From a virus (Duplodnaviria > Heunggongvirae > Uroviricota > Caudoviricetes), in IMG/VR virus record IMGVR_UViG_3300006052_000001: a DNA stretch of 64,000 bases; one strand, given 5' to 3'. The position numbers and the translations under genes are program-made. Numbering within the stretch: position 1 is the first letter of the stretch; every line of letters starts with the position of its first letter. This document shows, piece after piece, positions 16,817-29,073 of this stretch. Below the pieces are notes generated by a model. It ran no database searches. It saw nothing but the letters and a program-made list of their open reading frames with translations, and was not told where the DNA came from.

Positions 16817-16889
16817 TGGCCGTTATATCAGCGGTGAGATAGCTCGTCTGATACGCGAGAGGTCGATGGTTCGAATCCATCACGGCCAA
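16817..16889 (+). tRNA. tRNA-Ile (GAT)
   Basis: acceptor TGGCCGT/ACGGCCA, D TATC/GATA, loop CTGATAC. Confidence 0.8.
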
Positions 16890-16921
16890 CGCAACAACTA
16901 AATAATATCTCGGAGGCTCAT

Positions 16922-17074
16922 ATGTATTCGGCAAAAATGCTAGCTAAGGAACACGAACGTCCTGGCTGCTGCACTTTCGATGACCCTTATTACGCGCCGA
17001 AGATGCACGTTCTACGTCGCAGAATCCAGCGCAGAAGAGAAGATAGAAGTTGGAGAAAAGAATATGGTGTGTGA
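16922..17074 (+). CDS. small basic protein (50 aa)
   Basis: CGGAGG RBS; overlaps the next mini-ORF. Confidence 0.3.
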   Translation: MYSAKMLAKEHERPGCCTFDDPYYAPKMHVLRRRIQRRREDRSWRKEYGV

Positions 17075-17171
17075 TCATTGTGGCGGGCAGATGACTAGAA
17101 CGTTCTCTGATATGACTAAAGATATTTACAGATGTTCGTCCTGTGGTTCTGTAGTAACAGAAGATAAGTAG
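17064..17171 (+). CDS. zinc-ribbon mini-protein (35 aa)
   Basis: GGAGAAAAGAATATG; CDHCGG...CSSCG; followed by GCCCTTCGGGGC hairpin. Confidence 0.4.
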   Translation: MVCDHCGGQMTRTFSDMTKDIYRCSSCGSVVTEDK

Positions 17172-17185
17172 CCCTTCGGGGCTTT

Positions 17186-17257
17186 GCCCCTATCGTTTAA
17201 TGGATAGGACAAGAGCCTTCTAAGCTCTTTGTGGGGGTTCGATTCCCTCTGGGGGTA
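17186..17257 (+). tRNA. tRNA-Arg (TCT)
   Basis: loop CTTCTAA; D-arm like tRNA-Arg(ACG); G1-U72. Confidence 0.7.
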
Positions 17258-17288
17258 CGCTTGGGAAGCTGATTTTCAGGAGGTAAAC

Positions 17289-17462
17289 ATGGGTTTGTCT
17301 GAGTGGATTCCTAGGGAAATGCGCCAGGCCAATGAGGCTAGGCACAAAAGAGAGCGCGAGATGGCTCGTATGGGTCTTATTGAGTGGCTGTTGAAAGACC
17401 ACGCAGACGACCCAATACCAGAAGAGAAGAAAAGCTGGCTTAGAAAACAGCTTGAGAAATGA
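17289..17462 (+). CDS. small charged protein (57 aa)
   Basis: CAGGAGG RBS then ATG. Confidence 0.45.
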   Translation: MGLSEWIPREMRQANEARHKREREMARMGLIEWLLKDHADDPIPEEKKSWLRKQLEK

Positions 17463-17616
17463 GAAGACATGATAGGTAACTTGCTTCACCAGATTGCGGC
17501 AGCGATTCATCTGTACGAGATTGGTGGTGCCCGCAACCTACCCGGACTGATTCATTTTATTAATCAAACTTGCGAGCATATCACGGATATCATCAGGACA
17601 CGCAAGTAGAAAAAAT

Positions 17617-17689
17617 GCGGGTATAATTCAGAGGATAGAATATTCGTTTCCTAAACGAACAGTCGGGAGTTCGAATCTCTCTACTCGCA
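17617..17689 (+). tRNA. tRNA-Arg (CCT)
   Basis: acceptor GCGGGTA/TACTCGC, D ATTC/GAAT, loop TTCCTAA. Confidence 0.8.
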
Positions 17690-17757
17690 CAGAGGTAATG
17701 GGAAAAACCCTCTGGACCTTACGAGGCTCACAAATACCAGTAAATATTTCCCGTCAA

Positions 17758-17830
17758 GGTGGCATAGCATAGTGGTTAATGCACCAGCCCGTCAAGCTGG
17801 ATTACGAGGGTTCGAATCCCTTTGTCATCG
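17758..17830 (+). tRNA. tRNA-Asp (GTC)
   Basis: D GCAT/ATGC, loop CCGTCAA (C33), T-loop GGTTCGAATCC. Confidence 0.7.
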
Positions 17831-17928
17831 CTCACTTAGGTATACAGTTGTAGCTGCCGCCGATATAGAAGCGTAGGTGACGTGGAGCAGTGGCTCACTG
17901 ATCAGGCAACTGTACACCGGAATTCTGC

Positions 17929-17999
17929 CGCTGGTTCCTGAGTTGACATATGGGGCTTGGTACGCTTCAGAGCCGGGTTTGATTCCCGGTGGCGGCTCT
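17929..17999 (+). tRNA. tRNA-like element (possible Thr-GGT, aberrant D-arm and T-loop)
   Basis: acceptor GCCGCTG/TGGCGGC, T-arm CCGGG-TTTGATT-CCCGG, candidate anticodon arm GGGGC-TTGGTAC-GCTTC; D-arm does not pair. Confidence 0.3.
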
Positions 18000-18012
18000 T
18001 GGTTCTAAACTT

Positions 18013-18083
18013 GCCCCATAAGCATTAAGGTGATGCAGAAGACTTTTAATCTTCGGAAGAGCGGTCGGTACGTTCATGGGGTA
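18013..18083 (+). tRNA. tRNA-Lys (TTT) with non-canonical T-loop
   Basis: acceptor GCCCCAT/ATGGGGT, D GCAT/ATGC, arm GAAGA-CTTTTAA-TCTTC; T-loop GTCGGTA. Confidence 0.55.
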
Positions 18084-18094
18084 CGCACGGACTT

Positions 18095-18167
18095 GGGCCG
18101 GTAATTCAGCGGTGAGAAATTCCGTCTTATAAGCGGGAAGTCCTAGGTTCAACTCCTAGTCGGCCTA
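18095..18167 (+). tRNA. tRNA-Ile (TAT)
   Basis: 73-nt canonical cloverleaf; loop CTTATAA; T-arm CTAGG-TTCAACT-CCTAG. Confidence 0.6.
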
Positions 18168-18185
18168 CTTAGCCTTGGAGGGTTA

Positions 18186-18557
18186 ATGAATAGCTGGTAT
18201 CATGCAAAATCTGCCGCCCATAAGTGGGGAGGCAAACCAGAAGATTACATAGAAATAGAAGAGTTCATAGACTCTTCTAAAAAGGTAATAGGCGATTCCC
18301 GCCACAGATCAATGTATCATCACACTTTAGGTGTGTGGCTGTGCCAGGAAATTTTCGGCAGGACAATTCAGGTGGCTGAACATAAGGTAGTTCCTGTTCG
18401 CCTGATAGCTGAGCAGCATATCATAGAAGACCTTGGATGGCTGCCATCTCCTGCTGATTACATAAACAACATGAACTTGGTGCCGTGGATGAGCGGCGCT
18501 CAGAAAAAGACTTACTCACTCGATGAAATTTTAGATGCAGGAGGACTCATTGGATAA
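18186..18557 (+). CDS. hypothetical protein
   Basis: 123-aa ORF, GGAGGG RBS. Confidence 0.5.
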   Translation: MNSWYHAKSAAHKWGGKPEDYIEIEEFIDSSKKVIGDSRHRSMYHHTLGVWLCQEIFGRTIQVAEHKVVPVRLIAEQHIIEDLGWLPSPADYINNMNLVPWMSGAQKKTYSLDEILDAGGLIG

Positions 18558-19122
18558 TGAAGACGGCGTTCTAGGTCTGCCGGTTAAAGGCAGTATAAGC
18601 CACTATGGAACTAAAGTTGAGCAGCTACCTACTGAGCAATTGCTAGAAGCAATTAAGGCTTTGCTTGAAGACGACAAGATAGGCACTTTCGGATGGGTTC
18701 AGCAAACTCCGTATTTTAATGACGGTGACGCTTGTGAGTTTGGTGTTAAGATGGTATGGGTTCGCCCTGCTGTTTCTGACAGTGACAGAAGAACACTTTC
18801 TGTTTCGCCTAATATGCTCAAACCCGGTGACATTATTGAAGCTACTTCGGATGAGGATGAATACGAATTCCTGACAGTATCTCGTCGTATAGAAGATATT
18901 GAAGAGCTAGACGAATACTACGAAGACAGTGACGACTACAAGTACGAAGTAAGAACGTATGCTTACGGTGCTGAGTCAAAGTCACCCGAGCATCATTTAG
19001 CTCTAGCTAAAATGCTAGAGAGTGGTCATTACGATATCTGGCTGGAAAATACTTTTGGTGACCCTGCTAGAGTAGTTTTCCATAAGGACCACATTGAGAT
19101 CGAGTTCTACGATCACGACTGA
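18535..19122 (+). CDS. acidic hypothetical protein
   Basis: 195-aa ORF overlapping previous 3' end. Confidence 0.5.
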   Translation: MQEDSLDNEDGVLGLPVKGSISHYGTKVEQLPTEQLLEAIKALLEDDKIGTFGWVQQTPYFNDGDACEFGVKMVWVRPAVSDSDRRTLSVSPNMLKPGDIIEATSDEDEYEFLTVSRRIEDIEELDEYYEDSDDYKYEVRTYAYGAESKSPEHHLALAKMLESGHYDIWLENTFGDPARVVFHKDHIEIEFYDHD

Positions 19123-19170
19123 TATGTTATACTAGTACCAGAGAAGCCGACTCTTATAAAATCGGCGCAT

Positions 19171-19242
19171 GGGCTGTTGGCATGAAGGGGAAGCACTTGC
19201 TTTGCACGCAAGCACATAAGGGTTCGAATCCCTTACGGTCCA
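19171..19242 (+). tRNA. tRNA-Ala (TGC)
   Basis: arm CTTGC-TTTGCAC-GCAAG, T-loop GGTTCGAATCC, acceptor GGGCTGT/ACGGTCC with two GU pairs. Confidence 0.65.
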
Positions 19243-19426
19243 CGATCAGCTAGAGTAATAGACTGGTAATCTATGAGGGTACTGATAGAATGACGGAATC
19301 TATTTTCAGTCGTATTGGACCGTCCGCGATTAGAAATGGCTGAAAGAATATTTCTCCGGAAAAGTAGACGAGTAGGGGCTGTTTACCAACAGTCTATTTT
19401 CTGAAAGCGAAATAACGACGAAATAT

Positions 19427-19501
19427 CTGGGTATCGCCTAGTTTGGTATGGCACCTGATTTGGGGTCAGGAATAGCGCAGGTTCAAATCCTGCTACTCAG
19501 A
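19427..19501 (+). tRNA. tRNA-Pro (TGG)
   Basis: acceptor CTGGGTA/TACTCAG, arm CCTGA-TTTGGGG-TCAGG (G37), long D-loop. Confidence 0.65.
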
Positions 19502-19505
19502 CGGT

Positions 19506-19543
19506 GGAGGGGTGGTCTAGACCACCCCTCCAAACCCATTTTA
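19506..19543 (+). terminator. 12-bp perfect hairpin, terminator-like
   Basis: GGAGGGGTGGTC-TA-GACCACCCCTCC then AAACCCATTTT. Confidence 0.5.
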
Positions 19544-19595
19544 GGAGGAAAGTGTGTGGTAGAATGTAAGTGGAATATTCCGATTCGAAAGGACC

Positions 19596-19976
19596 ATGAA
19601 AATGGCACTTACAGTTAAGACTCTATCGAACTACCCTCAGTTTGGTAACGCTCTTGGCCTGACAAACGTGGACGCATCTGCATTCACGTTCACTAATGGT
19701 GTTTCTACTACATACACAGGTTATGTAGCAGGATACCTTGATGGTGAAGGTCGCGCTAAGCTATTCTACACTGATGGTCAGTCAGTTGCCCTTCCTTCTA
19801 TGGTTAAGGCTACTCAGGTATCTCAGGTAGACGCAGCAGGTAACACAAAGACTGGTGGATACTACATCACTCTTGGTTCATGGGCATCTGCTTCTCCTGA
19901 CTCAGCATCAGCTAACTCAGAGATTTACCTAGACCAGATGGGCATGATCATCGCCGCTTCCACAGCATATGGGTGA
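19596..19976 (+). CDS. Thr/Gly-rich small protein with hydrophobic C-terminus (paralog of 21063..21686)
   Basis: 126 aa; similar N-terminus and C-terminal ...AASTAYG tail to the 21063 ORF. Confidence 0.5.
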   Translation: MKMALTVKTLSNYPQFGNALGLTNVDASAFTFTNGVSTTYTGYVAGYLDGEGRAKLFYTDGQSVALPSMVKATQVSQVDAAGNTKTGGYYITLGSWASASPDSASANSEIYLDQMGMIIAASTAYG

Positions 19977-19999
19977 TCACAAAAAAGTTTTAAAACGGC

Positions 20000-20029
20000 T
20001 TGACAGACCGCTCCCGGTCTGGTAGGCTG
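20000..20029 (+). promoter_or_regulatory. promoter, TTGACA-N14-TGgTAGGCT
   Basis: conserved family; precedes structured leader and tRNA-Tyr. Confidence 0.55.
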
Positions 20030-20032
20030 TTC

Positions 20033-20110
20033 TACAGAGCGAGGGTCCGTTGCTAAGCGAACGCATGAAACACGGCTACGGACTTAGAAATGTACAAGAC
20101 CCTCGCTCTT
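20033..20110 (+). ncRNA. structured leader / candidate small RNA
   Basis: 12-bp long-range helix AGAGCGAGGGTC...GACCCTCGCTCT enclosing about 50 nt; contains GGGTCCG. Confidence 0.3.
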
Positions 20111-20114
20111 CCAA

Positions 20115-20195
20115 TGCGGTTTACTCAAGCGGCCAACGAGATTTGACTGTAAATCAAATGCGAAAGCTACGGGGGTTCGAATCCCTCAACCGCAA
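20115..20195 (+). tRNA. tRNA-Tyr (GTA)
   Basis: acceptor TGCGGTT/AACCGCA, loop CTGTAAA, long variable arm. Confidence 0.8.
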
Positions 20196-20470
20196 CGTTA
20201 ATCAGACAACTGAGGCTGGCTGATTAAAACGGGACACGTTGACAGCGTGAACTTATACATACCGGATAGATAGCCCGTATACAGGCCGGTACTGCTTTCC
20301 GTAACTTACTGTCAATAAGTTGCAGATAAGTCTTAGCCTAGGCGGAAAACGGCTTTGACAATAACCGCTCTTTCCCTTGTGGTCAGAGTCTAAATATTTT
20401 TTCTCTGGTGGTAGTCAGGCAACATATAGGGTCTGACAAGTGTACAAGGGTGGCTAGGTACACAACTTTT

Positions 20471-20553
20471 GCCCCGTTGGCGAAACGGCAGACGCGCTGG
20501 TCTTAGGAACCAGTTCCAGTTATGGAGTGAGGGTTCAAATCCCTTGCGGGGTA
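20471..20553 (+). tRNA. tRNA-Leu (TAG)
   Basis: class II; arm CTGGT-CTTAGGA-ACCAG, long variable arm, T-loop GGTTCAAATCC. Confidence 0.7.
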
Positions 20554-20566
20554 CGTATTAAAACTT

Positions 20567-20638
20567 GGGTTGTTAGCTCAGTTGGTAGAGCGCTGGTCTG
20601 AAGAACCAGGCGGATAGGTTCGATCCCTATACTTCCCA
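20567..20638 (+). tRNA. tRNA-Phe (GAA)
   Basis: D GCTC/GAGC, arm CTGGT-CTGAAGA-ACCAG; acceptor has two U-U mismatches. Confidence 0.65.
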
Positions 20639-20643
20639 CTTAT

Positions 20644-20716
20644 GGCGTCTTAGTCCAACGGCAGAGACAATACACTCAAAACGTATCAAGTTTGGGTTCA
20701 AATCCCAAAGACGCTA
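20644..20716 (+). tRNA. class-I tRNA with anticodon CAA (atypical)
   Basis: 72-nt cloverleaf, 5-nt variable loop, loop CTCAAAA, A73. Confidence 0.55.
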
Positions 20717-20739
20717 CTTTAATAGGCTGATTTAGATAA

Positions 20740-20812
20740 GGCTCTGTATCCCAATGGCAGAGGAAGAGAACTTAAAATTCTTTCAGTAAGGGTTCGACTC
20801 CCTTCAGAGCTA
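20740..20812 (+). tRNA. class-I tRNA with anticodon TAA (atypical)
   Basis: 73-nt cloverleaf, short variable loop TCAGT, loop CTTAAAA, A73. Confidence 0.55.
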
Positions 20813-20833
20813 CGCCAATTTTAGGAGGTTAAA

Positions 20834-21022
20834 ATGGAAATTGAGAAAGCAGAAGTCACTTTTATGACAGCGAATGAGCTAAGAAAACTCGCTGACGCTT
20901 TAGATGATTTTCCGCTTTATCAAGGAGGCGTCTATTACAATGGTGAAAAGGGTCGTGTCTGTGTCATTACAGATAACACAGTAGCTCTAGTCTCTAATTT
21001 TGCAAGACCCTCTTCGCAGTAG
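20834..21022 (+). CDS. small hypothetical protein (62 aa)
   Basis: TAGGAGGTTAAAATG. Confidence 0.45.
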   Translation: MEIEKAEVTFMTANELRKLADALDDFPLYQGGVYYNGEKGRVCVITDNTVALVSNFARPSSQ

Positions 21023-21062
21023 GGTACAATAGAGTCAGAATATTTCCGAGAAAGGTCTTATT

Positions 21063-21686
21063 ATGGCTCTATCTATCGCAACTTTGTCGGGCTTCCCAGT
21101 AGCTAATACTACTTTTGCCTCAACAAAGGTTCCATCTTTTTACCCAACTGGTGTCGCCGTAACTGGTACTAACAGCCCTTCGCCAACAGTGGCAGCAACT
21201 TACTCATACTCGCTTAGCTCAACTTTCCCGTACAACGGAAAGTATGTTTACACAGCGGGTGCTAACGTATGGGTTGCTGGTATTATTGACTCTCAGGGTG
21301 TTGTACCTTCACGTATCTTCTATGCGAACAATGGTTCGGGATACTACACAAGTACTCAGCCACTACCAACACTTCTGAATGTAATTCAGAACCAGTACAC
21401 AGACCCTTACGGATTAACTGAGTACGGTGGCTACGTTGTTACTCTAACTCCTGCTGAGCCTGGTCAGGATGCTGGTTCACCTTCATCAACAGGTAACCTT
21501 AACCAGTTCGGTCTGACAAACGCAACTTCTCAGTTCCCTAACGAGCCTATTCTTGTACCAGCACAGGGTTATCCTTCTGGTGTAGGAACAGGACCAAGCC
21601 CAACATCAGGATACCCACAGCCTTACATGACATTCTATGTGTCAATGGCAGCTATGCTAATCCTGGCTTCTACACAGTACGGGTGA
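21063..21686 (+). CDS. Thr/Ser/Gly/Pro-rich protein with hydrophobic C-terminus (paralog of 19596..19976)
   Basis: 207 aa; ends MAAMLILASTQYG. Confidence 0.5.
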   Translation: MALSIATLSGFPVANTTFASTKVPSFYPTGVAVTGTNSPSPTVAATYSYSLSSTFPYNGKYVYTAGANVWVAGIIDSQGVVPSRIFYANNGSGYYTSTQPLPTLLNVIQNQYTDPYGLTEYGGYVVTLTPAEPGQDAGSPSSTGNLNQFGLTNATSQFPNEPILVPAQGYPSGVGTGPSPTSGYPQPYMTFYVSMAAMLILASTQYG

Positions 21687-21875
21687 TCTGAATGGCTATT
21701 GTTTACAATCAGGTAAGCGTGGATGACACAGCTATTGGTGCCTATGCCCTAAACTGGTCACAGACTGCATGGACAGTGCAGACACTAGTTTCTGCGGCTC
21801 AGGTAACTGCTACTGGCGGAACATACGCTTAATAAATGTGCCCTAGAACCGAGGCCAGAACATATCGGTTCACAT

Positions 21876-21947
21876 GTGATCGTAGCTCAACGGTAGAGCA
21901 CTACGTTGCCAACGTAGCGGTTACGGGTTCAAATCCCGTTGGTCACT
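21876..21947 (+). tRNA. tRNA-Gly (GCC)
   Basis: acceptor GTGATCG/TGGTCAC, D GCTC/GAGC, arm CTACG-TTGCCAA-CGTAG. Confidence 0.8.
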
Positions 21948-21971
21948 CGCAATTTTTAAAGGAGGAATAAA

Positions 21972-22967
21972 TTGACACCTAACTATATTAACCATATCGT
22001 TTTAGTGTTAGATGCGTCATCTAGCATGACCAATCATGCTAAGAAACTAATCGAAGTGGCAGACAGTCACGTAGCTTACTTAGCCCAGAGGTCAAAAGAT
22101 TTAGACCAGGAAACACGTATCACCGTCTACTCGTTTAGCGATAGGAACAGTGCCCGTTGTCTTGTCTATGACAAAGACGTTCTGCGTATGCCAAGTATTG
22201 CTAATCTGTATAAGACCAATGGAATGACGGCTCTGGTAGATGCTACCATCCTGGCTATTGAAGACCTTCACCTAACCCCTCAGAAGTACGGCGAACACGC
22301 TTTTCTTATCTACGTGCTAACTGACGGTCAGGAGAATGACTCTCACGCCAGACCAGATGTTCTTAAGAACAAGATTGCTGCTCTTCCTAATCACTGGACT
22401 CTTGCGGCTTTCGTTCCTAACCAGCACGGTATCTTTGAAGCTAAGAAATTTGGTTTTCCGCCGAACAACATTGCTATCTGGGATACTACTTCTGTAGCTG
22501 GAATGGTTGAAGTTGGCAACACAATCAAGAAGTCAACTGAGCAGTTCATGGTTAACAGGACCAAGGGTATCCGAGGCACCACTAACCTATTCCAGCTTAA
22601 CGTTCTGTCCCCAGATGTCATTGAAGCGTCTTTGCCAAGTATTCCGCCAAGTGAGTTCCGTATGATTCCTGTTCGTCAGGAAGGAAGAATTGACGACACA
22701 GTACTGAATGAGCTAGGCATACCCTACGCTGTAGGAAAAGCGTTCTATCAGCTAACAAAGACTGAGACTATTCAGCCCCAGAAGGAAATTGCTCTTCTGG
22801 CAAATGGCAGAGTCCACGTTGGCAGCAACGCTCGTAAACTTCTAGGACTTCCAGATGACCATGTTAAGGTCAAGCCTGGTGACCATCCTGGTTACACTAT
22901 CTTCGTGCAAAGCACAAGTGTTAACAGGAAGCTACTAGCAGGAACAAACTTGCTAGTATTTAAGTAG
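21972..22967 (+). CDS. von Willebrand factor A (vWA) domain protein
   Basis: AAAGGAGG RBS, TTG start; N-terminal MIDAS motif LVLDASSSM with TDGQEND. Confidence 0.6.
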   Translation: MTPNYINHIVLVLDASSSMTNHAKKLIEVADSHVAYLAQRSKDLDQETRITVYSFSDRNSARCLVYDKDVLRMPSIANLYKTNGMTALVDATILAIEDLHLTPQKYGEHAFLIYVLTDGQENDSHARPDVLKNKIAALPNHWTLAAFVPNQHGIFEAKKFGFPPNNIAIWDTTSVAGMVEVGNTIKKSTEQFMVNRTKGIRGTTNLFQLNVLSPDVIEASLPSIPPSEFRMIPVRQEGRIDDTVLNELGIPYAVGKAFYQLTKTETIQPQKEIALLANGRVHVGSNARKLLGLPDDHVKVKPGDHPGYTIFVQSTSVNRKLLAGTNLLVFK

Positions 22968-22993
22968 GAGTTATATTGAACATTAGATCAAAG

Positions 22994-23614
22994 ATGGCTG
23001 TTGCTCTTGTAGCAGCAGTTAGTATCATCAGTCCAGTTGTGGCTACCACCACCGCATATGCTTCTCCTGTAGCAGTGTCAGCACCGCTAATTAGCGGTCA
23101 GCAAGTTTGCTCAGACACTGGTGCAGGTCTATGTATACAAGGTGCTGCCGGTGACGGTGATGGAGTATTAAATAACAACAGCCAGCCGAGTTCCGATATC
23201 CAAAGATGGAAAGTTGTTTTCGCCACTAGTTCTTGCAACAGCGGCGATGTATCCTACCCCGGTGATCAGTATGGTGGCACTACTTGGTGCCCATTTACAA
23301 ATCACTCTTATGACACTCAGTACGATGGGTACGCTATTACTCACTTTACTGAGCAGTACGATTCTAATTATTGTATAGGTGCAAAGACTTTCGGGCCACC
23401 AATTGCTGACACTTTGCCAACAGTGGTAAATTGCGGTGGAGGTACGGGAGTTAACTTCGTGCAGACTGGCACATACACATACACAAATGTATACCTGTCG
23501 AATACCGCAGGTATCCCCGGAAAATACGATCTTTGCTCAGACGGATTTTCCGGTGATAACATGGTATTCGAAACTTACCAGGCTGTCTATTGTCAGCTAG
23601 CCTGGGTCGGTTAA
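22994..23614 (+). CDS. secreted Cys-rich protein with ricin-type (QxW) lectin-like motifs
   Basis: ATG within ORF 22976..23614; predicted signal peptide; many paired Cys; QRWKV motif. Confidence 0.5.
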   Translation: MAVALVAAVSIISPVVATTTAYASPVAVSAPLISGQQVCSDTGAGLCIQGAAGDGDGVLNNNSQPSSDIQRWKVVFATSSCNSGDVSYPGDQYGGTTWCPFTNHSYDTQYDGYAITHFTEQYDSNYCIGAKTFGPPIADTLPTVVNCGGGTGVNFVQTGTYTYTNVYLSNTAGIPGKYDLCSDGFSGDNMVFETYQAVYCQLAWVG

Positions 23615-23623
23615 AGAAAATTT

Positions 23624-23663
23624 CCACAAGGGCTTGACAGACCGGCCCGAGTGTGGTACAGTA
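23624..23663 (+). promoter_or_regulatory. promoter, TTGACA-N14-TGgTACAGT
   Basis: conserved family. Confidence 0.55.
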
Positions 23664-23734
23664 GTAACTGTGAGCGGGGAGGGTTCGTTCTTTCCATGCT
23701 AGGTTCCTTCAGACCTAAACCGTTCACAGCTTAT

Positions 23735-23812
23735 GCCGCTGTTACTCTGCTGGCAAGGGGTAACCAGATTTTCACTCTGGGTAGGACGAGGGTTCAATTC
23801 CCTTCAGCGGTA
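23735..23812 (+). tRNA. tRNA-Glu (TTC), probable
   Basis: acceptor GCCGCTG/CAGCGGT, arm CCAGA-TTTTCAC-TCTGG, T-arm GAGGG-TTCAATT-CCCTT; D region irregular, 7-nt variable loop. Confidence 0.5.
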
Positions 23813-23900
23813 CGAGTGTTAGATGCGAAGACACAGGGTTACTTCTATCATATGGGATAATCAAAGACACCCTAGTCGCTTTATTCACTAACACATTAGA

Positions 23901-23974
23901 CGCGGGTTAGAGAAGTTCGGTATCTCACCAGCCTCATAAGCTGACATTGCATGGGTTCAAATCCCATACCCGCT
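23901..23974 (+). tRNA. tRNA-Met/Ile2 (CAT)
   Basis: D GAGA/TCTC, loop CTCATAA, T-loop GGTTCAAATCC; 1-72 mismatch. Confidence 0.65.
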
Positions 23975-24052
23975 ACTTAGGTTAGGCCAGGAGTCAAATT
24001 GCCCGACGTAGCTAGTTCGATTCCAGCATCATACTTGGTGTATAGTAGGGTC

Positions 24053-24083
24053 TTGACAGTGTGGTATCCATTAGGATATTATG
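24053..24083 (+). promoter_or_regulatory. sigma70-like promoter TTGACA-N18-TATTAT
   Basis: canonical -35 and -10. Confidence 0.5.
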
Positions 24084-24119
24084 GACGGGACTGTTGAAAT
24101 AAACAGCGAACAGCCTAAC

Positions 24120-24227
24120 CTTTAAGTTTAAAGTTCTAGATGCGGTTATTTGAGTTTCATCAACGCCAGGGACCGACACACTCAAGTATGTGTGTCCTCT
24201 AGAACTATTGTTGGTCGGTCCCACCCT
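24120..24227 (+). ncRNA. structured RNA candidate (interleaved long-range helices)
   Basis: AGTTCTAGA(24132)/TCTAGAACT(24198); GGGACCGACA(24168)/TGGTCGGTCCC(24213); central CACAC...GTGTG hairpin; sits between the promoter and tRNA-Met. Confidence 0.3.
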
Positions 24228-24300
24228 AGTCGGTAAGCCAGAGGCATAAGGCACTAGTCTCATAAGCTAGTATTCATCGGTTCGAATCCGATACTGACGA
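24228..24300 (+). tRNA. tRNA-Met/Ile2 (CAT), second copy
   Basis: arm CTAGT-CTCATAA-GCTAG, T-arm ATCGG-TTCGAAT-CCGAT; 1-72 mismatch. Confidence 0.6.
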
Positions 24301-24445
24301 CTTGGTTTGATGTGAAGAATACGGTTACTTCTAATAAAGGGAACTGGATGTTATAGGTTCGAATCCTATCTGACCGGCTTCATCGGTCAGTAGCTCAATG
24401 GTAGAGCGCTAGTCATATAAAAAGCTCCGTTTTCGATTTTTTCTC
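24301..24445 (+). ncRNA. YrlA-type Y-RNA-like tRNA-mimic, unit 1
   Basis: box TGATGTGAAGAATACGGTTACTTC(24309-31); T-arm ATAGG-TTCGAAT-CCTAT; capped acceptor hairpin CTGACCG-gcttcat-CGGTCAG (24369-91); D-arm TA-GCTC-AATGGTA-GAGC; ends pair GGTTTGA/TCAAACC. Confidence 0.45.
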
Positions 24446-24454
24446 AAACCTATC

Positions 24455-24596
24455 ATCTTGCTAGATGTGATAGAACAAACAGTTACTTCTCATTCAAAGA
24501 GAGAGTTTGCGGTTCGAGTCCGCATGTCGGCTCCACTTGCCGATATAGCTTAATGGTAAAGCGCTAAAAACACTGTAGTTCGCTTTGTACCCTAGC
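24455..24596 (+). ncRNA. YrlA-type Y-RNA-like tRNA-mimic, unit 2
   Basis: box TAGATGTGATAGAA...GTTACTTC; anticodon-like hairpin TTCTC-ATTCAAA-GAGAG (TCA); T-arm TGCGG-TTCGAGT-CCGCA; acceptor hairpin TGTCGGC-tCCActt-GCCGATA; D-arm TA-GCTT-AATGGTA-AAGC; ends pair TTGCTAG/CTAGCAA. Confidence 0.45.
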
Positions 24597-24603
24597 AAAT
24601 AAC

Positions 24604-24721
24604 TTAATATCTGATGCGATAGAATTTGGTTACTTCTAGTGAAAATGGCAAACACAATCAACATCAAATTGATATATCTGGGTTCAAACCCCAGGAAGAT
24701 TAAAACACCAAGTTCGCATTT
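24604..24721 (+). ncRNA. Y-RNA-like repeat unit 3 (no acceptor/D module)
   Basis: box CTGATGCGATAGAATTTGGTTACTTC; T-arm-like CTGGG-TTCAAAC-CCCAG; terminal pairing GATGCGA/TCGCATT. Confidence 0.35.
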
Positions 24722-24737
24722 GTTCTCAGGTATATTT

Positions 24738-24808
24738 GGCACCTTGACCGAGAGGCTAGGTGGCGGTCTGCAAAACCGTATACAGCAGTTCAATTCTGCT
24801 AGGTGCCT
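24738..24808 (+). tRNA. tRNA-Cys (GCA)
   Basis: acceptor GGCACCT/AGGTGCC, arm GCGGT-CTGCAAA-ACCGT, T-arm AGCAG-TTCAATT-CTGCT. Confidence 0.7.
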
Positions 24809-24811
24809 CTT

Positions 24812-24932
24812 TACTAGTTGCGTCTGAGTTCGGTTACTTCAGTTCGAATCTGATATGCCCCTCCAATCATGGGGCATAGCGGTCTGGCCGCTAAACCACC
24901 TGAAAGGGTGTCCCACCCGAAGTCGTTTTATC
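24812..24932 (+). ncRNA. Y-RNA-like repeat unit 4
   Basis: partial box GGTTACTTC; T-arm-like TCAG-TTCGAAT-CTGA; acceptor hairpin ATGCCCC-tCCAatcat-GGGGCAT (24855-77); terminal pairing GAGTTCGG/CCGAAGTC. Confidence 0.35.
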
Positions 24933-24954
24933 CTCTAGTATTAAAATTAAATAG

Positions 24955-25070
24955 CTTTACCAGATGTGAAGACATACAGATACTTCGCTACCAAAATAGG
25001 CGGGCCAGGGTTCGACTCCCGGCCTAATGGGACGGTTCCCTTTCTGTGGTCGATAATGTTCTCTGGTATT
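24955..25070 (+). ncRNA. Y-RNA-like repeat unit 5 (degenerate)
   Basis: box CAGATGTGAAGACATACAGATACTTC; T-arm-like CAGGG-TTCGACT-CCCGG; terminal pairing TACCAGA/TCTGGTA. Confidence 0.3.
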
Positions 25071-25139
25071 TTTACTACCGTCAGAAGCGTAGTTATCGGA
25101 TACTTCATCGCTGGTTAACATACCTGTGCAACAATAGAC

Positions 25140-25167
25140 CGATTACGTCTTTTACTCTGACGGTTTT
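25140..25167 (+). terminator. weak terminator-like hairpin plus T-tract
   Basis: CGTC-ttttactct-GACGG then TTTTTTG; also a long-range CCGTCAGA/TCTGACGG pairing. Confidence 0.35.
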
Positions 25168-25187
25168 TTGTATTCTAGGAGGTAAGA

Positions 25188-25466
25188 ATGAAAACTAGTT
25201 CTGCTTATGTAGATCCTTTCTCTGAAATGGAAAGATGGTTTTACAATCTTCCCTGCCGTTATCTAAGTAATATCTGTCATTGTGGCTCAGGTAAGCCGGT
25301 TCTATATTGGTCACCAGATGACGGAACAGGTTGTGAAGATTGCAGAGGATCGTTGTTTGTTTATATTCCGGCTGCAACGATGTACAACATAATGAATAAA
25401 TTTAACTTCCCTCCCGAACTTCAGAAAGCTGTATATGACCAGCTAGACGGAGATTTGGCAAGATAA
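25188..25466 (+). CDS. Cys-rich small protein (92 aa)
   Basis: TAGGAGGTAAGAATG; CHCGSG...CEDC. Confidence 0.5.
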   Translation: MKTSSAYVDPFSEMERWFYNLPCRYLSNICHCGSGKPVLYWSPDDGTGCEDCRGSLFVYIPAATMYNIMNKFNFPPELQKAVYDQLDGDLAR

Positions 25467-25482
25467 AAAGGAGATGTGAATT

Positions 25483-27117
25483 ATGGGAAAGCTAAACAAG
25501 TACACACCAAAGACAGTTACTTCACCTATTCAGATGAGCACGGTTCCTAACGCTCATACTGCTCTAGGCGGAATTGGTTACGCACCAGCAAACGCTGAGA
25601 GCGAGCTATTCGATCTTGGTATCAACCTTTTTGCCGGTGAGGACAACTACCATGAGTCAGGACAGGCAAGAGATAATCGTTTCACCCGTCTAGTTGAGGC
25701 TGTTGCGGTTAGCAATCCTGCTTGGATTACCGGATTCCTGGGCTGGCTAAGGTCAGAGGGAAACATTCGTACTGCTTCTATTATGGGTGCGGTTGTAGCT
25801 GTACATGCCCGTCTTAACGATCCAAGGTCTGTTGAGGCAGACAAGAACAGTGCCTCTCACGGTCCCTCTTGGAACCGTAGAATCGTTGATGCTGTTTGTC
25901 AGCGTGCAGATGAGCCTGGTGAGTTTATCGCTTACTGGACACAGAGATATGGTAAGAACATTCCTATGCCAGTAAAGCGTGGTCTATCTGACGCTGCTCG
26001 CAGGCTATACAACGAGTACTCATTTATGAAGTATGACAGTGACAAGGCTGGCTGGCGTATTGGTGACGTTATTGAGTTTGTTCACCCTAAGCCAGTTGAC
26101 AACGATCAGGCAGCGCTTTTCGGTTACGCGATTTCTGCCCGTCATGGAAATGCCTTTGAGGACATGTCTAGGCTTAGCAGAATTGAGGCCAACAAGGCTC
26201 TTAGGGAAGAGTTCAAGACTAACCCTGATGTTCTGCTAAACACAGGATTTCTGAAGAAGGCCGGTTTCACCTGGGAGGATGCTCTGTCTCTGGCAGGTAC
26301 AAAGGTGGATAAGGCTAAGCTATGGGAGTCTTTGATCTTCGCAAAGGCAGTGCCTATTTTCGCGCTGATCAGGAATCTAAGGAACATGGAGCAGGCAGGA
26401 ATTAGCCGCGCTGCTATGACAGAAGTTTGCAACACTATTGCTAACCCAGAAGTGATTGCAAAGTCTCGTCTATTCCCATTCCAGATTTACGCGGCTCACA
26501 AGTACGCTCAGTCAATGCACTGGAAGTCTGCTCTTGAGGATGCTATGACATATTCAACCCTGAATGTGCCACAGCTTGACGGAGACACTTTGCTGCTTAT
26601 TGATGCTTCTGGCTCAATGTTCGGCACAAAGCTTTCCGGCAAGAGCGATCTAGAGCGCGTTGAAGCTGCTGCTGTATTTGGTGCTGCTTTCGCTGTGCGT
26701 AACCCTGATACAACAAAGGTAGTGACTTTCTCTAACGACACCAAGATCGTTCCGGTGACAAAGGGAATGTCAATGCTTGGGCTGACAGATAAGATCATGC
26801 GTACTGCCGCAACTCAGCAAAGTGGTACTGCTACTGCTGCTGCTCTTAAGGCAAGTTACACAGGACAGAAGAGAGTTATCATCGTAACTGATGAGCAGTC
26901 TTCTGGTTCTTACGGTTACTACTCAAGAGGTAGCGTTTCTGATAAGGTTCCTGACAGTACATACCTATACTCATTCGACCTTGCTGGACACCGCATTTCT
27001 GACATTCCTTCGGGAAAGAATCGCAGGCACCAGCTTGGAGGTTTGACTGACAAGTCATTCGGCATGATCCCGCTCCTAGAGCGTGGTAACAGTGCAAGAT
27101 GGCCTTGGGAAAAGTAA
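25483..27117 (+). CDS. rsr: Ro60/Rsr-like ribonucleoprotein (TROVE-like N-terminal region plus C-terminal vWA)
   Basis: 544 aa; C-terminal vWA with MIDAS LLLIDASGSMFG; the large N-terminal region fits the Ro60 TROVE+vWA architecture; follows the tRNA-like array; GGAG RBS. Confidence 0.55.
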   Translation: MGKLNKYTPKTVTSPIQMSTVPNAHTALGGIGYAPANAESELFDLGINLFAGEDNYHESGQARDNRFTRLVEAVAVSNPAWITGFLGWLRSEGNIRTASIMGAVVAVHARLNDPRSVEADKNSASHGPSWNRRIVDAVCQRADEPGEFIAYWTQRYGKNIPMPVKRGLSDAARRLYNEYSFMKYDSDKAGWRIGDVIEFVHPKPVDNDQAALFGYAISARHGNAFEDMSRLSRIEANKALREEFKTNPDVLLNTGFLKKAGFTWEDALSLAGTKVDKAKLWESLIFAKAVPIFALIRNLRNMEQAGISRAAMTEVCNTIANPEVIAKSRLFPFQIYAAHKYAQSMHWKSALEDAMTYSTLNVPQLDGDTLLLIDASGSMFGTKLSGKSDLERVEAAAVFGAAFAVRNPDTTKVVTFSNDTKIVPVTKGMSMLGLTDKIMRTAATQQSGTATAAALKASYTGQKRVIIVTDEQSSGSYGYYSRGSVSDKVPDSTYLYSFDLAGHRISDIPSGKNRRHQLGGLTDKSFGMIPLLERGNSARWPWEK

Positions 27118-27130
27118 TTTACAGAAACTC

Positions 27131-27160
27131 TTGACAGCAGGGTCCGTCCGTGGTAGGCTA
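27131..27160 (+). promoter_or_regulatory. promoter, TTGACA-N14-TGgTAGGCT
   Basis: conserved family. Confidence 0.55.
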
Positions 27161-27197
27161 GTGCTTGCCACGGACGGACGGCACCAGGAGGAACAAG

Positions 27198-27377
27198 ATG
27201 CCCGAGCTAATTATAGGTTCTTTAACAAGCGTGACAGCAGGATTTATGATCCTGTTCGGAATGTACTACAGCCGCACGCATCCTTCGCCTAAAGTCCTTA
27301 AGAAAAAATTGAGGAAAAGGTACATCAAGTCAGGGCACCTTGAAGACCTTGACGAATTAGTTAGGTTGGAGGGGTAA
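27198..27377 (+). CDS. small single-pass membrane protein (59 aa)
   Basis: CAGGAGGAACAAGATG; internal ATG of ORF 27165..27377; TM then Lys-rich tail. Confidence 0.45.
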   Translation: MPELIIGSLTSVTAGFMILFGMYYSRTHPSPKVLKKKLRKRYIKSGHLEDLDELVRLEG

Positions 27378-27378
27378 T

Positions 27379-28296
27379 ATGAGCATGTTTATGTTCATTC
27401 TTTCTATGATCCTTTTTCTGGGAGCAATTGCTACAGGTGTATACTTTGCTATCAGTATGGAGCTATCAGCCGCAGGAATTGGAGCAGCGCTTCTAGTTGT
27501 TGGCCTGATTTTCTTCGGCTGGTCAGGGGTCAGGGAAGTCCCGACCAATAGTGTTGGTGTTCCAACAGCATTTGGTAGTGTTGAGCCTGCGGTAAATCCC
27601 GGTTTTCATTGGATGGCTCCGTGGACTAGAGTAAACATCATTGACAAGACTGTGCAGACTACTTACTTCACTGGTGGTTTTGACAAGAACGGCGTTTGCA
27701 CAAACGGTCTGGATGTTCGTATTGGTGGTCAGCAGCAGGCATGTGGTGACATGACAATTAAGTGGCAGGTCACTGATGCTGGTGCCCCAGTACTATTTAA
27801 GCAGTATAGTAACGGCGGAGATGTTATGAGCAGCATTCAGAATTCGCTGGTTATCACTGATCTGCAAACAGTAGCGAACAAGGTACTTGGTGACTACAAT
27901 CCTATTCAGGACGTGGCGCTAACTACTGGTGCTGGAAACAGCCAGTTCTCTACATTCGGTCCTCTTATCGAAGCTCAGATGAAGCAGCTTTTCGGCCAGG
28001 ATATTAAGGTCGTAGGCTTCAATATGTCTTTGCTTCATTATGACACTGCAACACAGACTAGGCTGAATGCTATTCAGCAGCAGTACGGTGACACCGCTAT
28101 TGCTCTTGAACTGCTTAAGACTAACCAGGCGCAGGCTAAGGCTAACGCAGCTATTGGTACTCCAAGCCCGTCGCAGATGCAGTATCTTTGCTTCCAGCTT
28201 ATTCAGACAGCAGAGAAGACCGGATATATGGGCCTTCCCGGTTCGCTTAGCTGTGGTACAAGCAGCGGCACAACCATTGTGTCTGCCCATCCATAA
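27379..28296 (+). CDS. SPFH/band-7-like (prohibitin/stomatin family) membrane protein
   Basis: two N-terminal TM segments then a conserved periplasmic-type domain; GGAGGGG RBS. Confidence 0.5.
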   Translation: MSMFMFILSMILFLGAIATGVYFAISMELSAAGIGAALLVVGLIFFGWSGVREVPTNSVGVPTAFGSVEPAVNPGFHWMAPWTRVNIIDKTVQTTYFTGGFDKNGVCTNGLDVRIGGQQQACGDMTIKWQVTDAGAPVLFKQYSNGGDVMSSIQNSLVITDLQTVANKVLGDYNPIQDVALTTGAGNSQFSTFGPLIEAQMKQLFGQDIKVVGFNMSLLHYDTATQTRLNAIQQQYGDTAIALELLKTNQAQAKANAAIGTPSPSQMQYLCFQLIQTAEKTGYMGLPGSLSCGTSSGTTIVSAHP

Positions 28297-28302
28297 AGTA
28301 GC

Positions 28303-28332
28303 TTGACAAACGGGGAGTGTCGTGTTACTATA
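28303..28332 (+). promoter_or_regulatory. promoter, TTGACA-N14-TGtTACTAT
   Basis: conserved family; precedes the tRNA-Gly/Ser/Lys group. Confidence 0.55.
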
Positions 28333-28352
28333 AATATGACACTCCCCCACAT

Positions 28353-28423
28353 GCGTCTTTAGTTTAGAGGCAAAACCGCTGACTTCCAATCAGCCATCGC
28401 GGGTTCGATTCCCGCAAGACGCT
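28353..28423 (+). tRNA. tRNA-Gly (TCC)
   Basis: acceptor GCGTCTT/AAGACGC, arm GCTGA-CTTCCAA-TCAGC, T-arm GCGGG-TTCGATT-CCCGC. Confidence 0.8.
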
Positions 28424-28434
28424 CGCACAGTTAT

Positions 28435-28521
28435 GGAATCTTCGCCTAGTCTGGTTTATGGCGCGTCACTGCTAATGACGTTGAGGTAATACTCTCGTAG
28501 GTTCAAATCCTACAGATTCCG
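28435..28521 (+). tRNA. tRNA-Ser (GCT)
   Basis: class II; acceptor GGAATCT/AGATTCC, arm CGTCA-CTGCTAA-TGACG, long variable arm. Confidence 0.8.
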
Positions 28522-28544
28522 CTCTGGATTGCGCCGTGCAGGGC

Positions 28545-28612
28545 ACGAACAGGTCTTGAAAACCTGGGTATGGTGAAGAGCCATAGGGGATCGTTACCTC
28601 CGCTCTCCGCGT
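28545..28612 (+). pseudogene. truncated tRNA-Ser (TGA) remnant
   Basis: arm CAGGT-CTTGAAA-ACCTG, variable arm, 3' acceptor GCTCTCC; no matching 5' acceptor or D-arm. Confidence 0.35.
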
Positions 28613-28622
28613 AGTAAATTAA

Positions 28623-28694
28623 GCCTCTTTAGCACAGCGGTAGTGCAGCAGACTCTTAATCTGTGGGTCATTGGTTCGAATCCAATAAGGGGTA
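28623..28694 (+). tRNA. tRNA-Lys (CTT)
   Basis: D GCAC/GTGC, loop CTCTTAA, T-arm ATTGG-TTCGAAT-CCAAT; G1-U72. Confidence 0.7.
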
Positions 28695-28772
28695 CGCTAC
28701 AGTAGGAAATGAAAACCCCCGTATCTGATAGCACCACCGGTAACCAGTCCGGGGCGTAAACGGGGTTACAAT

Positions 28773-28846
28773 GCGAGCATAGAGTAATAGGTTAACTCAC
28801 CACTCCCTCAAAGTGGAGACTGCGGGTTCGATTCCCGTTGTTCGTA
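28773..28846 (+). tRNA. tRNA-Glu (CTC), probable
   Basis: acceptor GCGAGCA/TGTTCGT, arm CCACT-CCCTCAA-AGTGG (C33), long D-loop. Confidence 0.5.
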
Positions 28847-28980
28847 CCCGGCGCAACAGCTAGGTAATTAATGAAGCACAAGTGCATGTATCTTCTTCCC
28901 GGCAAGGTAGTGATACAATCAACCGAAGATGGATACAAGCTTCAGCAGCTATGGCTTTGTATTATCTGCCGGGAAACTAA

Positions 28981-29052
28981 GGGCGGTTAGCTCAGTGGAA
29001 GAGCAGGACTTTTACACAGTCAAGGTCAAAGGTTCAATCCCTTTACTGCCTA
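28981..29052 (+). tRNA. tRNA-Val (TAC)
   Basis: D GCTC/GAGC, loop TTTACAC, T-arm AAAGG-TTCAATC-CCTTT. Confidence 0.75.
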
Positions 29053-29073
29053 CGTAGCGGTTCCGCTATAGAA

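Follow-up and report, generated by a model that had tools for sequence, protein, structure and literature searches.

Y RNAs encoded next to rsr, the gene for the Ro60 protein, have been described in bacteria and phages, together with their domain of T arm, acceptor and D arm and, in one species, the opening of this domain by RNase P with addition of a CCA tail (PMC4201824; PMC12135203; bioRxiv 10.1101/312249). Y RNAs that imitate transfer RNA (tRNA) in this way are known already. Here, we describe an array of about seven such units in a 64,000-nucleotide stretch of tailed-phage DNA (IMG/VR record IMGVR_UViG_3300006052_000001), hereafter called the window, with emphasis on unit 2 (24460-24596), a Y-RNA-like noncoding RNA that contains a circularly permuted tRNA mimic and a genomically encoded UCCA. 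The Y units, the tRNA genes and rsr are on the + strand, and coordinates in related loci are preceded by the locus number (L). By analogy with Mycobacterium smegmatis YrlA, the permuted module of these Ro60-linked RNAs is probably opened to give a free CCA end.

The M. smegmatis YrlA (Chen et al. 2014, RNA 20:1715; PMC4201824) resembles unit 2 in having a T arm, a capped acceptor of 7 base pairs (bp) and a D arm. In vivo it is found as a 5′ half of 82 nucleotides (nt) and a 3′ half of 65 nt, both of which immunoprecipitate with Rsr; the 3′ half starts at the RNase P site, where M1 RNA also cleaves the transcript in vitro, and the 5′ half gains a CA and thereby ends in CCA (PMC4201824). The authors held the 7-bp acceptor stem responsible for this cleavage (PMC4201824), which has been restated as "exonucleolytic nibbling and CCA addition" (bioRxiv 10.1101/312249). 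As we read it, the M. smegmatis gene encodes only the first C of the tail, the CA being added, whereas units 2 and 4 of the phage array encode the full N-CCA. No anticodon-like arm was reported for this RNA, and the species has two Y RNAs as opposed to about seven, interleaved with tRNAs, in the phage. Its 5′ end (…GGUGAUGUGAG…) and an internal segment (…CACUUCUAAUGGAAUGG…) resemble GAUGUGAAG…UUACUUCUAAUAAAGGGAACUGG of unit 1, as do the printed primers (…GGTGATGTGAGCCG; CACTTCTAATGGAATGGTCGC), the likeness being judged from the primer sequences.

Salmonella Typhimurium YrlA (RF02553; crystal structure in Wang et al. 2018, bioRxiv 10.1101/312249) is a Ro-bound Y RNA whose effector domain adopts an L-shaped tRNA fold; its closed acceptor stem-loop and permuted arms recur in unit 2. 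This RNA has a 6-bp acceptor, carries neither a free CCA nor an anticodon loop and is uncut by RNase P; in the words of Wang et al., it "lacks the anticodon loop" (bioRxiv 10.1101/312249). Its Y stem replaces the anticodon stem, whereas unit 2 has a separate anticodon-like arm and a Y stem at the 26/27 junction. Yrn1 of Deinococcus radiodurans and Yrl1 and Yrl2 of Thermus phage phiLo are Y RNAs that tether Ro60 to PNPase, and the phiLo Ro60 binds phage-encoded Y-like RNAs as well as host PNPase in vitro (PMC4201824; PMC12135203). A 5-bp "anticodon arm" can also be drawn for Yrn1, but the loop of this RNA has 6 nt and its arms are oriented differently (PMC4201824). For the phiLo RNAs, the searched passages mention no tRNA-like module, CCA or tRNA island; the term "tRNA" appears in that text two times and "YrlA" is absent from it (PMC12135203).

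Permuted genes are also known among tRNAs proper. In the red alga Cyanidioschyzon merolae (Soma et al. 2007, as cited in bioRxiv 10.1101/312249), the 3′ half comes first and the acceptor ends are joined by a short loop, as in unit 2, this loop being opened by RNase P and RNase Z. The C. merolae precursors carry a bulge-helix-bulge and are circularised by splicing endonuclease and ligase to give continuous tRNAs; no bacterial splicing endonuclease is known (bioRxiv 10.1101/312249). In unit 2, by contrast, the break is flanked by a long Ro-type stem, and ligation is not indicated. In the two-piece transfer-messenger RNA of alpha-proteobacteria and some cyanobacteria (permuted ssrA), a CCA-encoding acceptor 3′ strand lies upstream of the 5′ strand, and excision of the loop yields a free CCA. 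This RNA differs in being alanylated and in acting together with SmpB on ribosomes; it lacks both a Ro-binding stem and an anticodon arm and is unrelated in sequence.

Four features of the phage array seem to be new. These are tRNA modules with a canonical anticodon arm, that is, mimics of a whole tRNA; the differing attachment of the Y stem among paralogous units; an encoded N-CCA in the capping loop, enriched over phage tRNA genes; and the size of the array, about seven units with tRNA genes between them. Some of them may be visible already in the supplementary alignments of Chen et al. 2014.

Unit 2 and its Ro60-linked array

The description of unit 2 draws on its sequence, its minimum-free-energy (MFE) fold and orthologue covariation. 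The 5′ strand of the Y stem (24460-24489) holds GAUGUGA (24464-24470), the helix-2 segment ACAGU (24479-24483) and the conserved UUACUUC (24483-24489). The 3′ strand (24572-24596), with ACUGU (24572-24576), UCGCUUU (24580-24586) and a basal CUAGC (24592-24596), is complementary to 24460-24483, and the MFE fold forms this stem in part. Between the two strands lie an anticodon-like arm, a variable loop, a T arm, the acceptor 3′ strand, UCCA-CUU, the acceptor 5′ strand and a D arm, in this order, which includes the succession of T arm, closed acceptor and D arm typical of YrlA.

The anticodon-arm mimic TTCTCATTCAAAGAGAG (UUCUC-AUUCAAA-GAGAG) maps to 24487-24503, exactly the 5-7-5 hairpin with U33, the triplet TCA and A37 that an earlier note on this DNA had recognised from the letters; four of its five stem pairs are Watson-Crick and one is U.G. 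The 7-nt loop (24492-24498) reads A32-U33-UCA(34-36)-A37-A38, with UCA at 24494-24496. It is followed by the variable-loop equivalent AGUU (4 nt, 24504-24507) and by the T arm UGCGG-UUCGAGU-CCGCA (24508-24524), in which three of the 5 bp covary. The closed acceptor hairpin (24525-24545) has 7 bp, five of them covarying, and consists of the 3′ strand UGUCGGC (24525-24531), U73 (24532), CCA (24533-24535), the linker CUU (24536-24538) and the 5′ strand GCCGAUA (24539-24545). The segment GGC-T-CCA-CTT corresponds to 24529-24538, and its TCCA (24532-24535) lies in the 7-nt loop that caps the 7-bp stem. The module ends with the U8-A9 equivalents, the D arm GCUU-AAUGGUA-AAGC (24548-24562) and a G26 equivalent (together 24546-24563), and an 8-nt linker separates the latter from the 3′ strand of the Y stem.

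When the pieces were joined in tRNA order with the natural UCCA, ARAGORN drew a canonical cloverleaf of 74 nt, in which the acceptor/T stems are 7/5, the D stem has 4 bp and the variable loop 4 nt, and labelled it tRNA-SeC(tca) from the anticodon alone; on the genomic sequence, unit 2 was not called by ARAGORN. Judged from its sequence, the module is a complete circularly permuted tRNA mimic with its acceptor closed and the Y stem at the junction of nucleotides 26 and 27. Identity of unit 2 to the 29 phage tRNAs ranges from 62 to 66%, as compared with a mean of 59% and a 90th percentile of 65% between the tRNAs, and no parent tRNA can be named because these values are no higher than among tRNAs themselves.

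The window encodes terminase, portal, capsid, sheath and baseplate proteins of a tailed phage and has a GC content of 46%. Its 29 true tRNA genes, called by ARAGORN and Rfam, all lie on the + strand at about 13.9-29 kb (13888-29053). The Y array (23820-25170) comprises about seven units interspersed with two tRNA-Met genes and one tRNA-Cys gene, and the units and interleaved tRNAs are probably co-transcribed. Downstream, on the strand of unit 2 and beginning 886 nt after it, lies rsr (25483-27117), which encodes a Ro60 orthologue of 544 amino acids with TROVE and vWA domains (Pfam TROVE E = 4e-17) and presumably the protein partner of the Y units. It shares 36-40% identity with the "Ro-like RNA binding protein" of Streptomyces, Gordonia and Arthrobacter phages. 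An identical Ro60 protein is present on a 116-kb contig and on four shorter contigs, and the array is 100% identical across all four loci compared, the shortest of which (L124) covers part of it.

All units share a 5′ motif, (CYAG)AUGYGA, a helix strand and UUACUUC, and a 3′ motif made of the complementary helix strand, UCGNUUU and UUCUC(CURG). At the DNA level, GATGYGA…G(T/A)TACTTC heads every unit and also the units of Streptomyces phage LuckySocke, and the 3′ consensus UCGNUUU..UUCUC..CURG is present throughout the array. The stem formed by the conserved 5′ and 3′ ends is presumed to be the Ro-binding part. The published Ro motif GNCGAAN0-1G (PMC4201824) is matched loosely, by GCGAAG in unit 0 and GUGAUAG in unit 2. 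Within the 64 kb, both the 5′/3′ motif pair and the closed-acceptor modules occur in this array only.

The Rfam YrlA model (RF02553) matched unit 1 at 24312-24439 (36.8 bits, E = 5e-6) and the unit 2 core at 24505-24562 (23.2 bits, E = 0.04, model positions 28-81), both below its gathering score of 69; orthologous units in L125, L131, L132 and L133 scored 31-38 bits. Together with the common motifs and the downstream Ro60 gene, these matches identify units 2 and 4 as two members of the Y-RNA array of a phage Ro60 gene. The view of them in the earlier note as YrlA-like tRNA mimics with a capped acceptor thus agrees with the gene neighbourhood and, below the gathering score, with Rfam.

Relatives of the array were collected by protein similarity. 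A Ro60 search returned 1240 homologues at E <= 1e-20, from which ten loci at 45-54% identity were taken, with L183 and L184 added later. In eight of the further genomes, the 1-2 kb that precede rsr hold syntenic arrays of tRNAs and Y units (L125, L127, L128, L129, L131, L132, L133 and L134), whose Ro60 proteins are 43-54% identical to that of the window. The linkage of array and rsr holds in all twelve other rsr loci that were read with upstream sequence. Four homologous units precede the Ro gene of LuckySocke (L135) and two that of Gordonia phage VanLee (L136), and the Y motifs are shared by L183, a high-GC locus with Lsr2 and GntR neighbours. Based on these homologues and on the likeness to the M. 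smegmatis primers, we assign the units to an actinobacterial or actinophage type of Y RNA, an assignment of the RNA type rather than of the host of this 46% GC phage. Among 50,697 phage records, Megablast found no match to the array, and a Ro60-based search of IMG/VR viral contigs gave no relative. A scan of viral contigs with the degenerate motif GATGYGA-N(4-14)-GTTACTTC returned at least 120 single matches, the chance level for about 15 specified bases, and the loci taken from it (L001-L120) were discarded as chance matches. A scan of viral and metagenome contigs with a unit 4 signature gave mostly true tRNAs and coding matches, with Y units in L144 and L148 only.

The encoded CCA and a probable opening of the acceptor

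Unit 4 (24813-24939) also has a closed acceptor with T-CCA, and it folds better than all of 200 shuffles (z = -3.2). Its T arm (24838-24854) is followed by the acceptor strand AUGCCCC (24855-24861), U73 (24862), CCA (24863-24865), the linker AUCAU (24866-24870) and GGGGCAU (24871-24877). The segment CCCC-T-CCA-ATCAT corresponds to 24858-24870, and the TCCA to 24862-24865. The D arm (24879-24891) and a GAAA-tetraloop hairpin (24897-24910) come next, and the Y stem enters at the position of the variable arm. In both unit 2 and unit 4 the 7 nt after the T stem pair with the 7 nt beyond the loop, so that T-CCA occupies exactly tRNA positions 73-76, and the report of T-CCA after the acceptor 3′ strand in these two units proved accurate. 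The accompanying statement that no true tRNA of the island encodes CCA needs correction, since tRNA-His (16520-16595) has C73-CCA (1/29).

To place these loops in context, a script was used to collect every T arm directly followed by a perfect closed hairpin, which gave 25 modules from nine genomes, each loop being divided into N73, three further nucleotides and a linker. N-CCA stands at positions 73-76 in 9 of the 25 loops and at none of four other registers (binomial P ~1e-11 with p(CCA) = 0.013). The true tRNA genes of these genomes carry it in only 2 cases out of 87, an approximately 15-fold difference (Fisher P = 1.5e-5). All six orthology groups hold at least one CCA member, with differing discriminators (U, A, G) and linkers. 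The remaining positions of the loop also have counterparts in tRNA genes: C74 is present in 22/25 loops and 87/87 true tRNA genes, U at -1 in 17/25 and 72/87, AU at -2 and -1 in 14/25 and 49/87, and CAU before +1 in 13/25 and 18/87. In nearly all modules the 7-bp acceptor directly abuts the 5-bp T stem. Loci examined later contributed one more CCA module (C-CCA-CAU in L183) and seven without (one each from L144, L148, L183b, L184 and VanLee, and two from LuckySocke), for a total of 10/33.

These counts indicate that N-CCA in the loops is more than chance. From its composition, the acceptor-capping loop appears to be a tRNA 3′ trailer (N73-C74, here with the full CCA) fused to a 5′ leader that ends in U and usually in CAU. 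The case for selection on CCA rests on the whole family and most strongly on unit 4, whose close orthologues retain it (U-CCA-AUCAU in the window, A-CCA-AAUCAU in L127, G-CCA-ACAU in L128). A 12-bp acceptor/T minihelix with U(-1) is a substrate form recognised by bacterial RNase P, and a 7-bp acceptor, a U(-1) or CAU leader and G+1 are features of RNase P substrates. Units 2 and 4 both have the M. smegmatis type of 7-bp acceptor on a 5-bp T stem, and both combine a trailer that extends at least to C74 with a leader suited to RNase P (U73-CCA-CUU|G in unit 2, U73-CCA-AUCAU|G in unit 4).

Because the loops are of this trailer-leader form, and because the M. smegmatis YrlA with the same 7-bp stem is cut and CCA-tailed, processing to a free CCA end is the most likely mechanism. 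RNase P is predicted to cut 5′ of the first acceptor nucleotide, at 24538|24539 in unit 2 and 24870|24871 in unit 4. The 3-5-nt linker (CUU or AUCAU) could then be trimmed back to the encoded CCA by 3′ exonucleases, and the nicked, Ro-bound RNA, held together by its acceptor and Y stems, would display a tRNA with a free N-CCA end. Units with C74 alone, such as unit 1, would depend on the CCA-adding enzyme for the rest of the tail, as the M. smegmatis RNA does. The tRNA displayed in this way may recruit a tRNA-binding effector or shield the RNA ends from exonucleases, and protection by the CCA end, suggested by Chen et al. (PMC4201824), would be the most economical function. The idea in the earlier note that the encoded CCA is the sign of a processed tRNA-like 3′ end is therefore a plausible one, in view of the M. 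smegmatis precedent and the enrichment of N-CCA, C74 and CAU. Together with the full tRNA modules and the variable attachment of the Y stem, the loops point to selection for a free CCA end in these RNAs, as opposed to a peculiarity of M. smegmatis, which would make the question of which tRNA-binding factor a Y RNA recruits testable with defined constructs.

Several observations weigh against such processing or against its premises. The units are divergent and score far under the YrlA gathering threshold of 69, and unit 2 has an extra arm; their binding by Ro60 is assumed from gene adjacency and the common stem motif. As a single sequence, unit 2 folds no better than shuffles (z = -1.2). Cleavage in this phage is argued from the M. 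smegmatis case, and both S. Typhimurium YrlA and D. radiodurans Yrn1 are uncleaved (PMC4201824). CCA is absent from the distant unit 4-type modules of L144 and L148 and from the LuckySocke and VanLee modules. The unit 2 orthologues read UCAA, UCAU and UCAA, with CCA in the window only, so the unit 2 CCA may be a recent, neutral change of a single base.

An alternative is that the capped acceptor, like that of S. Typhimurium YrlA, is never cut, and that its N-CCA is either the relic of a tandem-tRNA junction or acts within the loop, through contact with a CCA-recognising protein or as the known CCA anti-determinant against RNase Z that keeps the loop shut. YrlA RNAs have been described as mostly closed permuted tRNA mimics and poor RNase P substrates (PMC4201824; bioRxiv 10.1101/312249), and the occurrence of CCA among orthologues is patchy (10/33 modules), the unit 2 relatives having UCAA or UCAU. 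A pure relic, however, would not show the 15-fold enrichment over phage tRNA genes (9/25 versus 2/87), nor would it keep one register while discriminator and linker vary. The acceptor length, leader and G+1 suit RNase P, and the only tested YrlA with a 7-bp stem is cut. We therefore regard an acceptor that stays closed as unlikely, though it is the most serious competitor of processing to a free CCA end.

An extended version of the processing model is that complete tRNAs with a free CCA and fast-changing anticodon loops, tethered to Ro60 and opened by RNase P, serve as baits or adaptors for tRNA-directed enzymes; we consider this speculative and quite improbable. As baits they would be decoys for host anticodon nucleases, and as adaptors they would bring cleaved tRNAs to Ro60-PNPase or to the phage RNA ligase and phosphoesterases. 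The retention of the loop form (7 nt, U33, purine 37, A38) while the triplet turns over would fit selection for changing targets. In the extreme form of this model some units may be aminoacylated.

A separate observation concerns the true tRNA genes. All 87 of those with a clean 7-bp acceptor in the nine genomes encode C after the discriminator, with mostly U/G and then U/C/A at positions 75-76. This strict rule of N73-C74 only was unexpected, and it suggests a particular 3′-end processing or RNase P requirement in the host.

The anticodon-like arm and its triplet

Orthologues of unit 2 were recognised by their flanks, acceptor loop and D arm in L125 (3143-3290), L132 (3600-3754) and L134 (3313-3465) and aligned with MAFFT. 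Fifteen pairs were scored, namely three alignable hairpin pairs, five of the T stem and seven of the acceptor. All were paired in every sequence (100%), and 11 change on both sides, a result matched by 0/500 shuffles; sliding the 3′ partners lowers pairing to 32-42%. All three alignable hairpin pairs show compensatory changes, and RNAalifold independently predicts the hairpin, T-stem and acceptor helices. The orthologue loops are always 7 nt long, reading AUUCAAA in the window, AUGCAAA in L125 and AUGCGGA in both L132 and L134. Comparison of these four loops shows that the arm and U33 are conserved and that the triplet is not, UCA being confined to the window and replaced by GCA in L125 and GCG in L132 and L134. 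The earlier note had made conservation of the TCA hairpin among relatives a test of its proposals, and the outcome is divided, since the hairpin is kept through compensatory changes but the TCA is lost. Across all genomes, about 27 anticodon-like arms were read by eye, and with few exceptions the loop is 7 nt long and has U33, a purine at 37 and A38; their triplets include ACG, AUG, AUC, AAC, UUG, GAA, GAU, GUA, GUU, CAU, CAA, GCA, GCU and UCU. This suggests that the anticodon-like arm completes the tRNA disguise and that the triplet itself is not under selection.

The UCA had also been taken for the anticodon of a selenocysteine tRNA or opal suppressor, which would make unit 2 a working permuted or split tRNA that is aminoacylated and reads UGA. 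In favour of this reading, unit 2 has all four arms together with U33 and A37, an acceptor of 7 bp and a UCCA in its DNA; the ARAGORN label of the un-permuted sequence is tRNA-SeC(tca), and Chen et al. (PMC4201824) raise the possible aminoacylation of the cleaved M. smegmatis YrlA. But the triplet differs in every orthologue and at least ten triplets occur in related loops. The un-permuted unit, with its 7/5 stems and 4-nt variable loop, does not have the selenocysteine-type architecture of 8/5 or 9/4 stems, a long variable arm and an extended D stem. Nor is it a continuous RNA with free acceptor ends, as its acceptor is capped by a loop and the long Y stem interrupts the chain at 26/27, so that the product would be in two pieces. 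TGA is an ordinary stop in the window, where it ends 8/45 open reading frames (ORFs), and long ORFs are intact under table 11. No selenocysteine-pathway domain was found among 37 ORFs scanned with Pfam, a scan that was not exhaustive. Stop-reading triplets occur in 3 of about 22 anticodon-like loops (UCA twice in the window and UUA in L134) against about one expected, which is not significant. With an unconserved triplet, TGA as an ordinary stop and long ORFs intact, the suppressor reading is unsupported and in our judgement very improbable.

That the units are functionless, being decaying tRNA debris or dimeric-tRNA junctions with a coincidental hairpin and TCCA, is hardly credible: the region is dense with tRNA genes, dimeric tRNAs can be false-positive YrlA matches (Chen et al., PMC4201824) and the unit 2 fold z-score is unremarkable, but hairpin, T arm and acceptor are preserved through compensatory changes, conservation of the Y-stem motifs reaches from a 46% GC phage to Streptomyces phages and the high-GC L183, and the array is tied to rsr in every genome examined.

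Other units and neighbouring features

The remaining units of the array differ in their tRNA-like content. Unit 0 (23820-23884; homologue at L125 2383-2450) is a Y stem without a tRNA-like module. Unit 1 (24307-24441) has the classic YrlA layout of T arm, closed 7-bp acceptor and D arm; its acceptor CUGACCG-GCUUCAU-CGGUCAG has C74 without CCA, and the Y stem replaces the anticodon stem. In unit 3 (24611-24722) the tRNA-like module has the normal arm order and matches tRNA model positions 4-67 with 35.5 bits. Its 4-bp "acceptor" (CUUC/GAAG) runs on into the Y stem, and its anticodon-like loop CAUCAAA has A, not U, at position 33. Units 5 and 6 (24961-25170) have homologues in L125, L127 and L128. 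Unit 5 has a degenerate T arm and a small hairpin; unit 6 has no tRNA module and folds with z = -3.0 into a structure whose 8-bp outer stem and following T run look like the terminator of the array. From the sequences of the units, the attachment point of the Y stem appears to vary between the place of the anticodon stem, the 26/27 junction, the variable-arm position and a continuation of the acceptor.

Some units have been taken for tRNA genes. The ARAGORN "tRNA-SeC(tca)" at 24630-24702 was rejected as a true tRNA, being Y unit 3, and orthologues of this unit receive the calls tRNA-Ile(gat) (L127 3079-3151) and tRNA-Stop(tta) (L134 3198-3270). In GenBank, "tRNA-Ser(gct)" of LuckySocke gene 36 (L135 3274-3347) and "tRNA-Arg(tct)" of VanLee gt001 (L136 2704-2775) overlap Y units. 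In each, the Y 5′ motif comes with an anticodon-like arm and a T arm, and beyond these lie a closed acceptor hairpin and a D arm. Both features appear to be the 5′ halves of Y RNAs mis-annotated as tRNAs, and no Y RNA is annotated in either record. Such calls (tRNA-SeC here, tRNA-Ser(gct) in LuckySocke, tRNA-Arg(tct) in VanLee) inflate and distort phage tRNA repertoires.

Among the neighbouring genes, a protein with a PF09414 RNA ligase domain (5793-6371, - strand, E = 5e-10) shows no visible link to the Y units, and two calcineurin-like metallophosphoesterases (11214-12011 and 14379-15026, both + strand) lie beside the tRNA island. The ligase, the phosphoesterases and Ro60 resemble an RNA (tRNA) repair toolkit, a hint of tRNA-cleaving host defences. 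A vWA-domain protein (21972-22967) is encoded upstream of the array and an SPFH/Band-7 protein (27379-28296) downstream of rsr. These positions are held by Band_7 proteins in L125, L128, L131 and L133 and by a vWA protein in L134, and both may be further members of the locus. Small RF-1-domain (PF00472) proteins of 114-134 amino acids are encoded in the tRNA island, within a few kb of rsr, in L127 (8580-8924), L128 (7895-8263) and L132 (483-887); none was found among the 37 window ORFs scanned with Pfam.

A possible Y-like half-site (25473-25523) covers the start of rsr. GATGTGA at 25473 overlaps the Shine-Dalgarno and start region of the gene, and ACAGTTACTTC at 25513, 30 nt inside the ORF, matches 11 nt of the unit 2 5′ strand. 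We considered and rejected autoregulation through this site, which is unconserved in ten relatives and probably a chance occurrence; only L129 has GGAGATGTGCA ahead of the start.

Two further elements lie within the array. Between the first tRNA-Met and the next unit, a structured element (23977-24135) has a long-range stem (UUAGGUUAGGC/GCCUAACC) that encloses the T-arm-like hairpin GCUAG-UUCGAUU-CCAGC, and it contains a near-consensus promoter-like site, TTGACA-18-TATTAT, at 24053-24082. This element is kept in L125 (2851-2985), at a different position in the array. At 24139-24227, a 9-bp hairpin (GGGACCGAC…GUCGGUCCC) comes after a truncated Y 5′ motif (GAUGCGGUUAUUUGAG); the element abuts the second tRNA-Met and in part overlaps its 5′ end (24228), with counterparts in L125 (2745) and L127 (2533).

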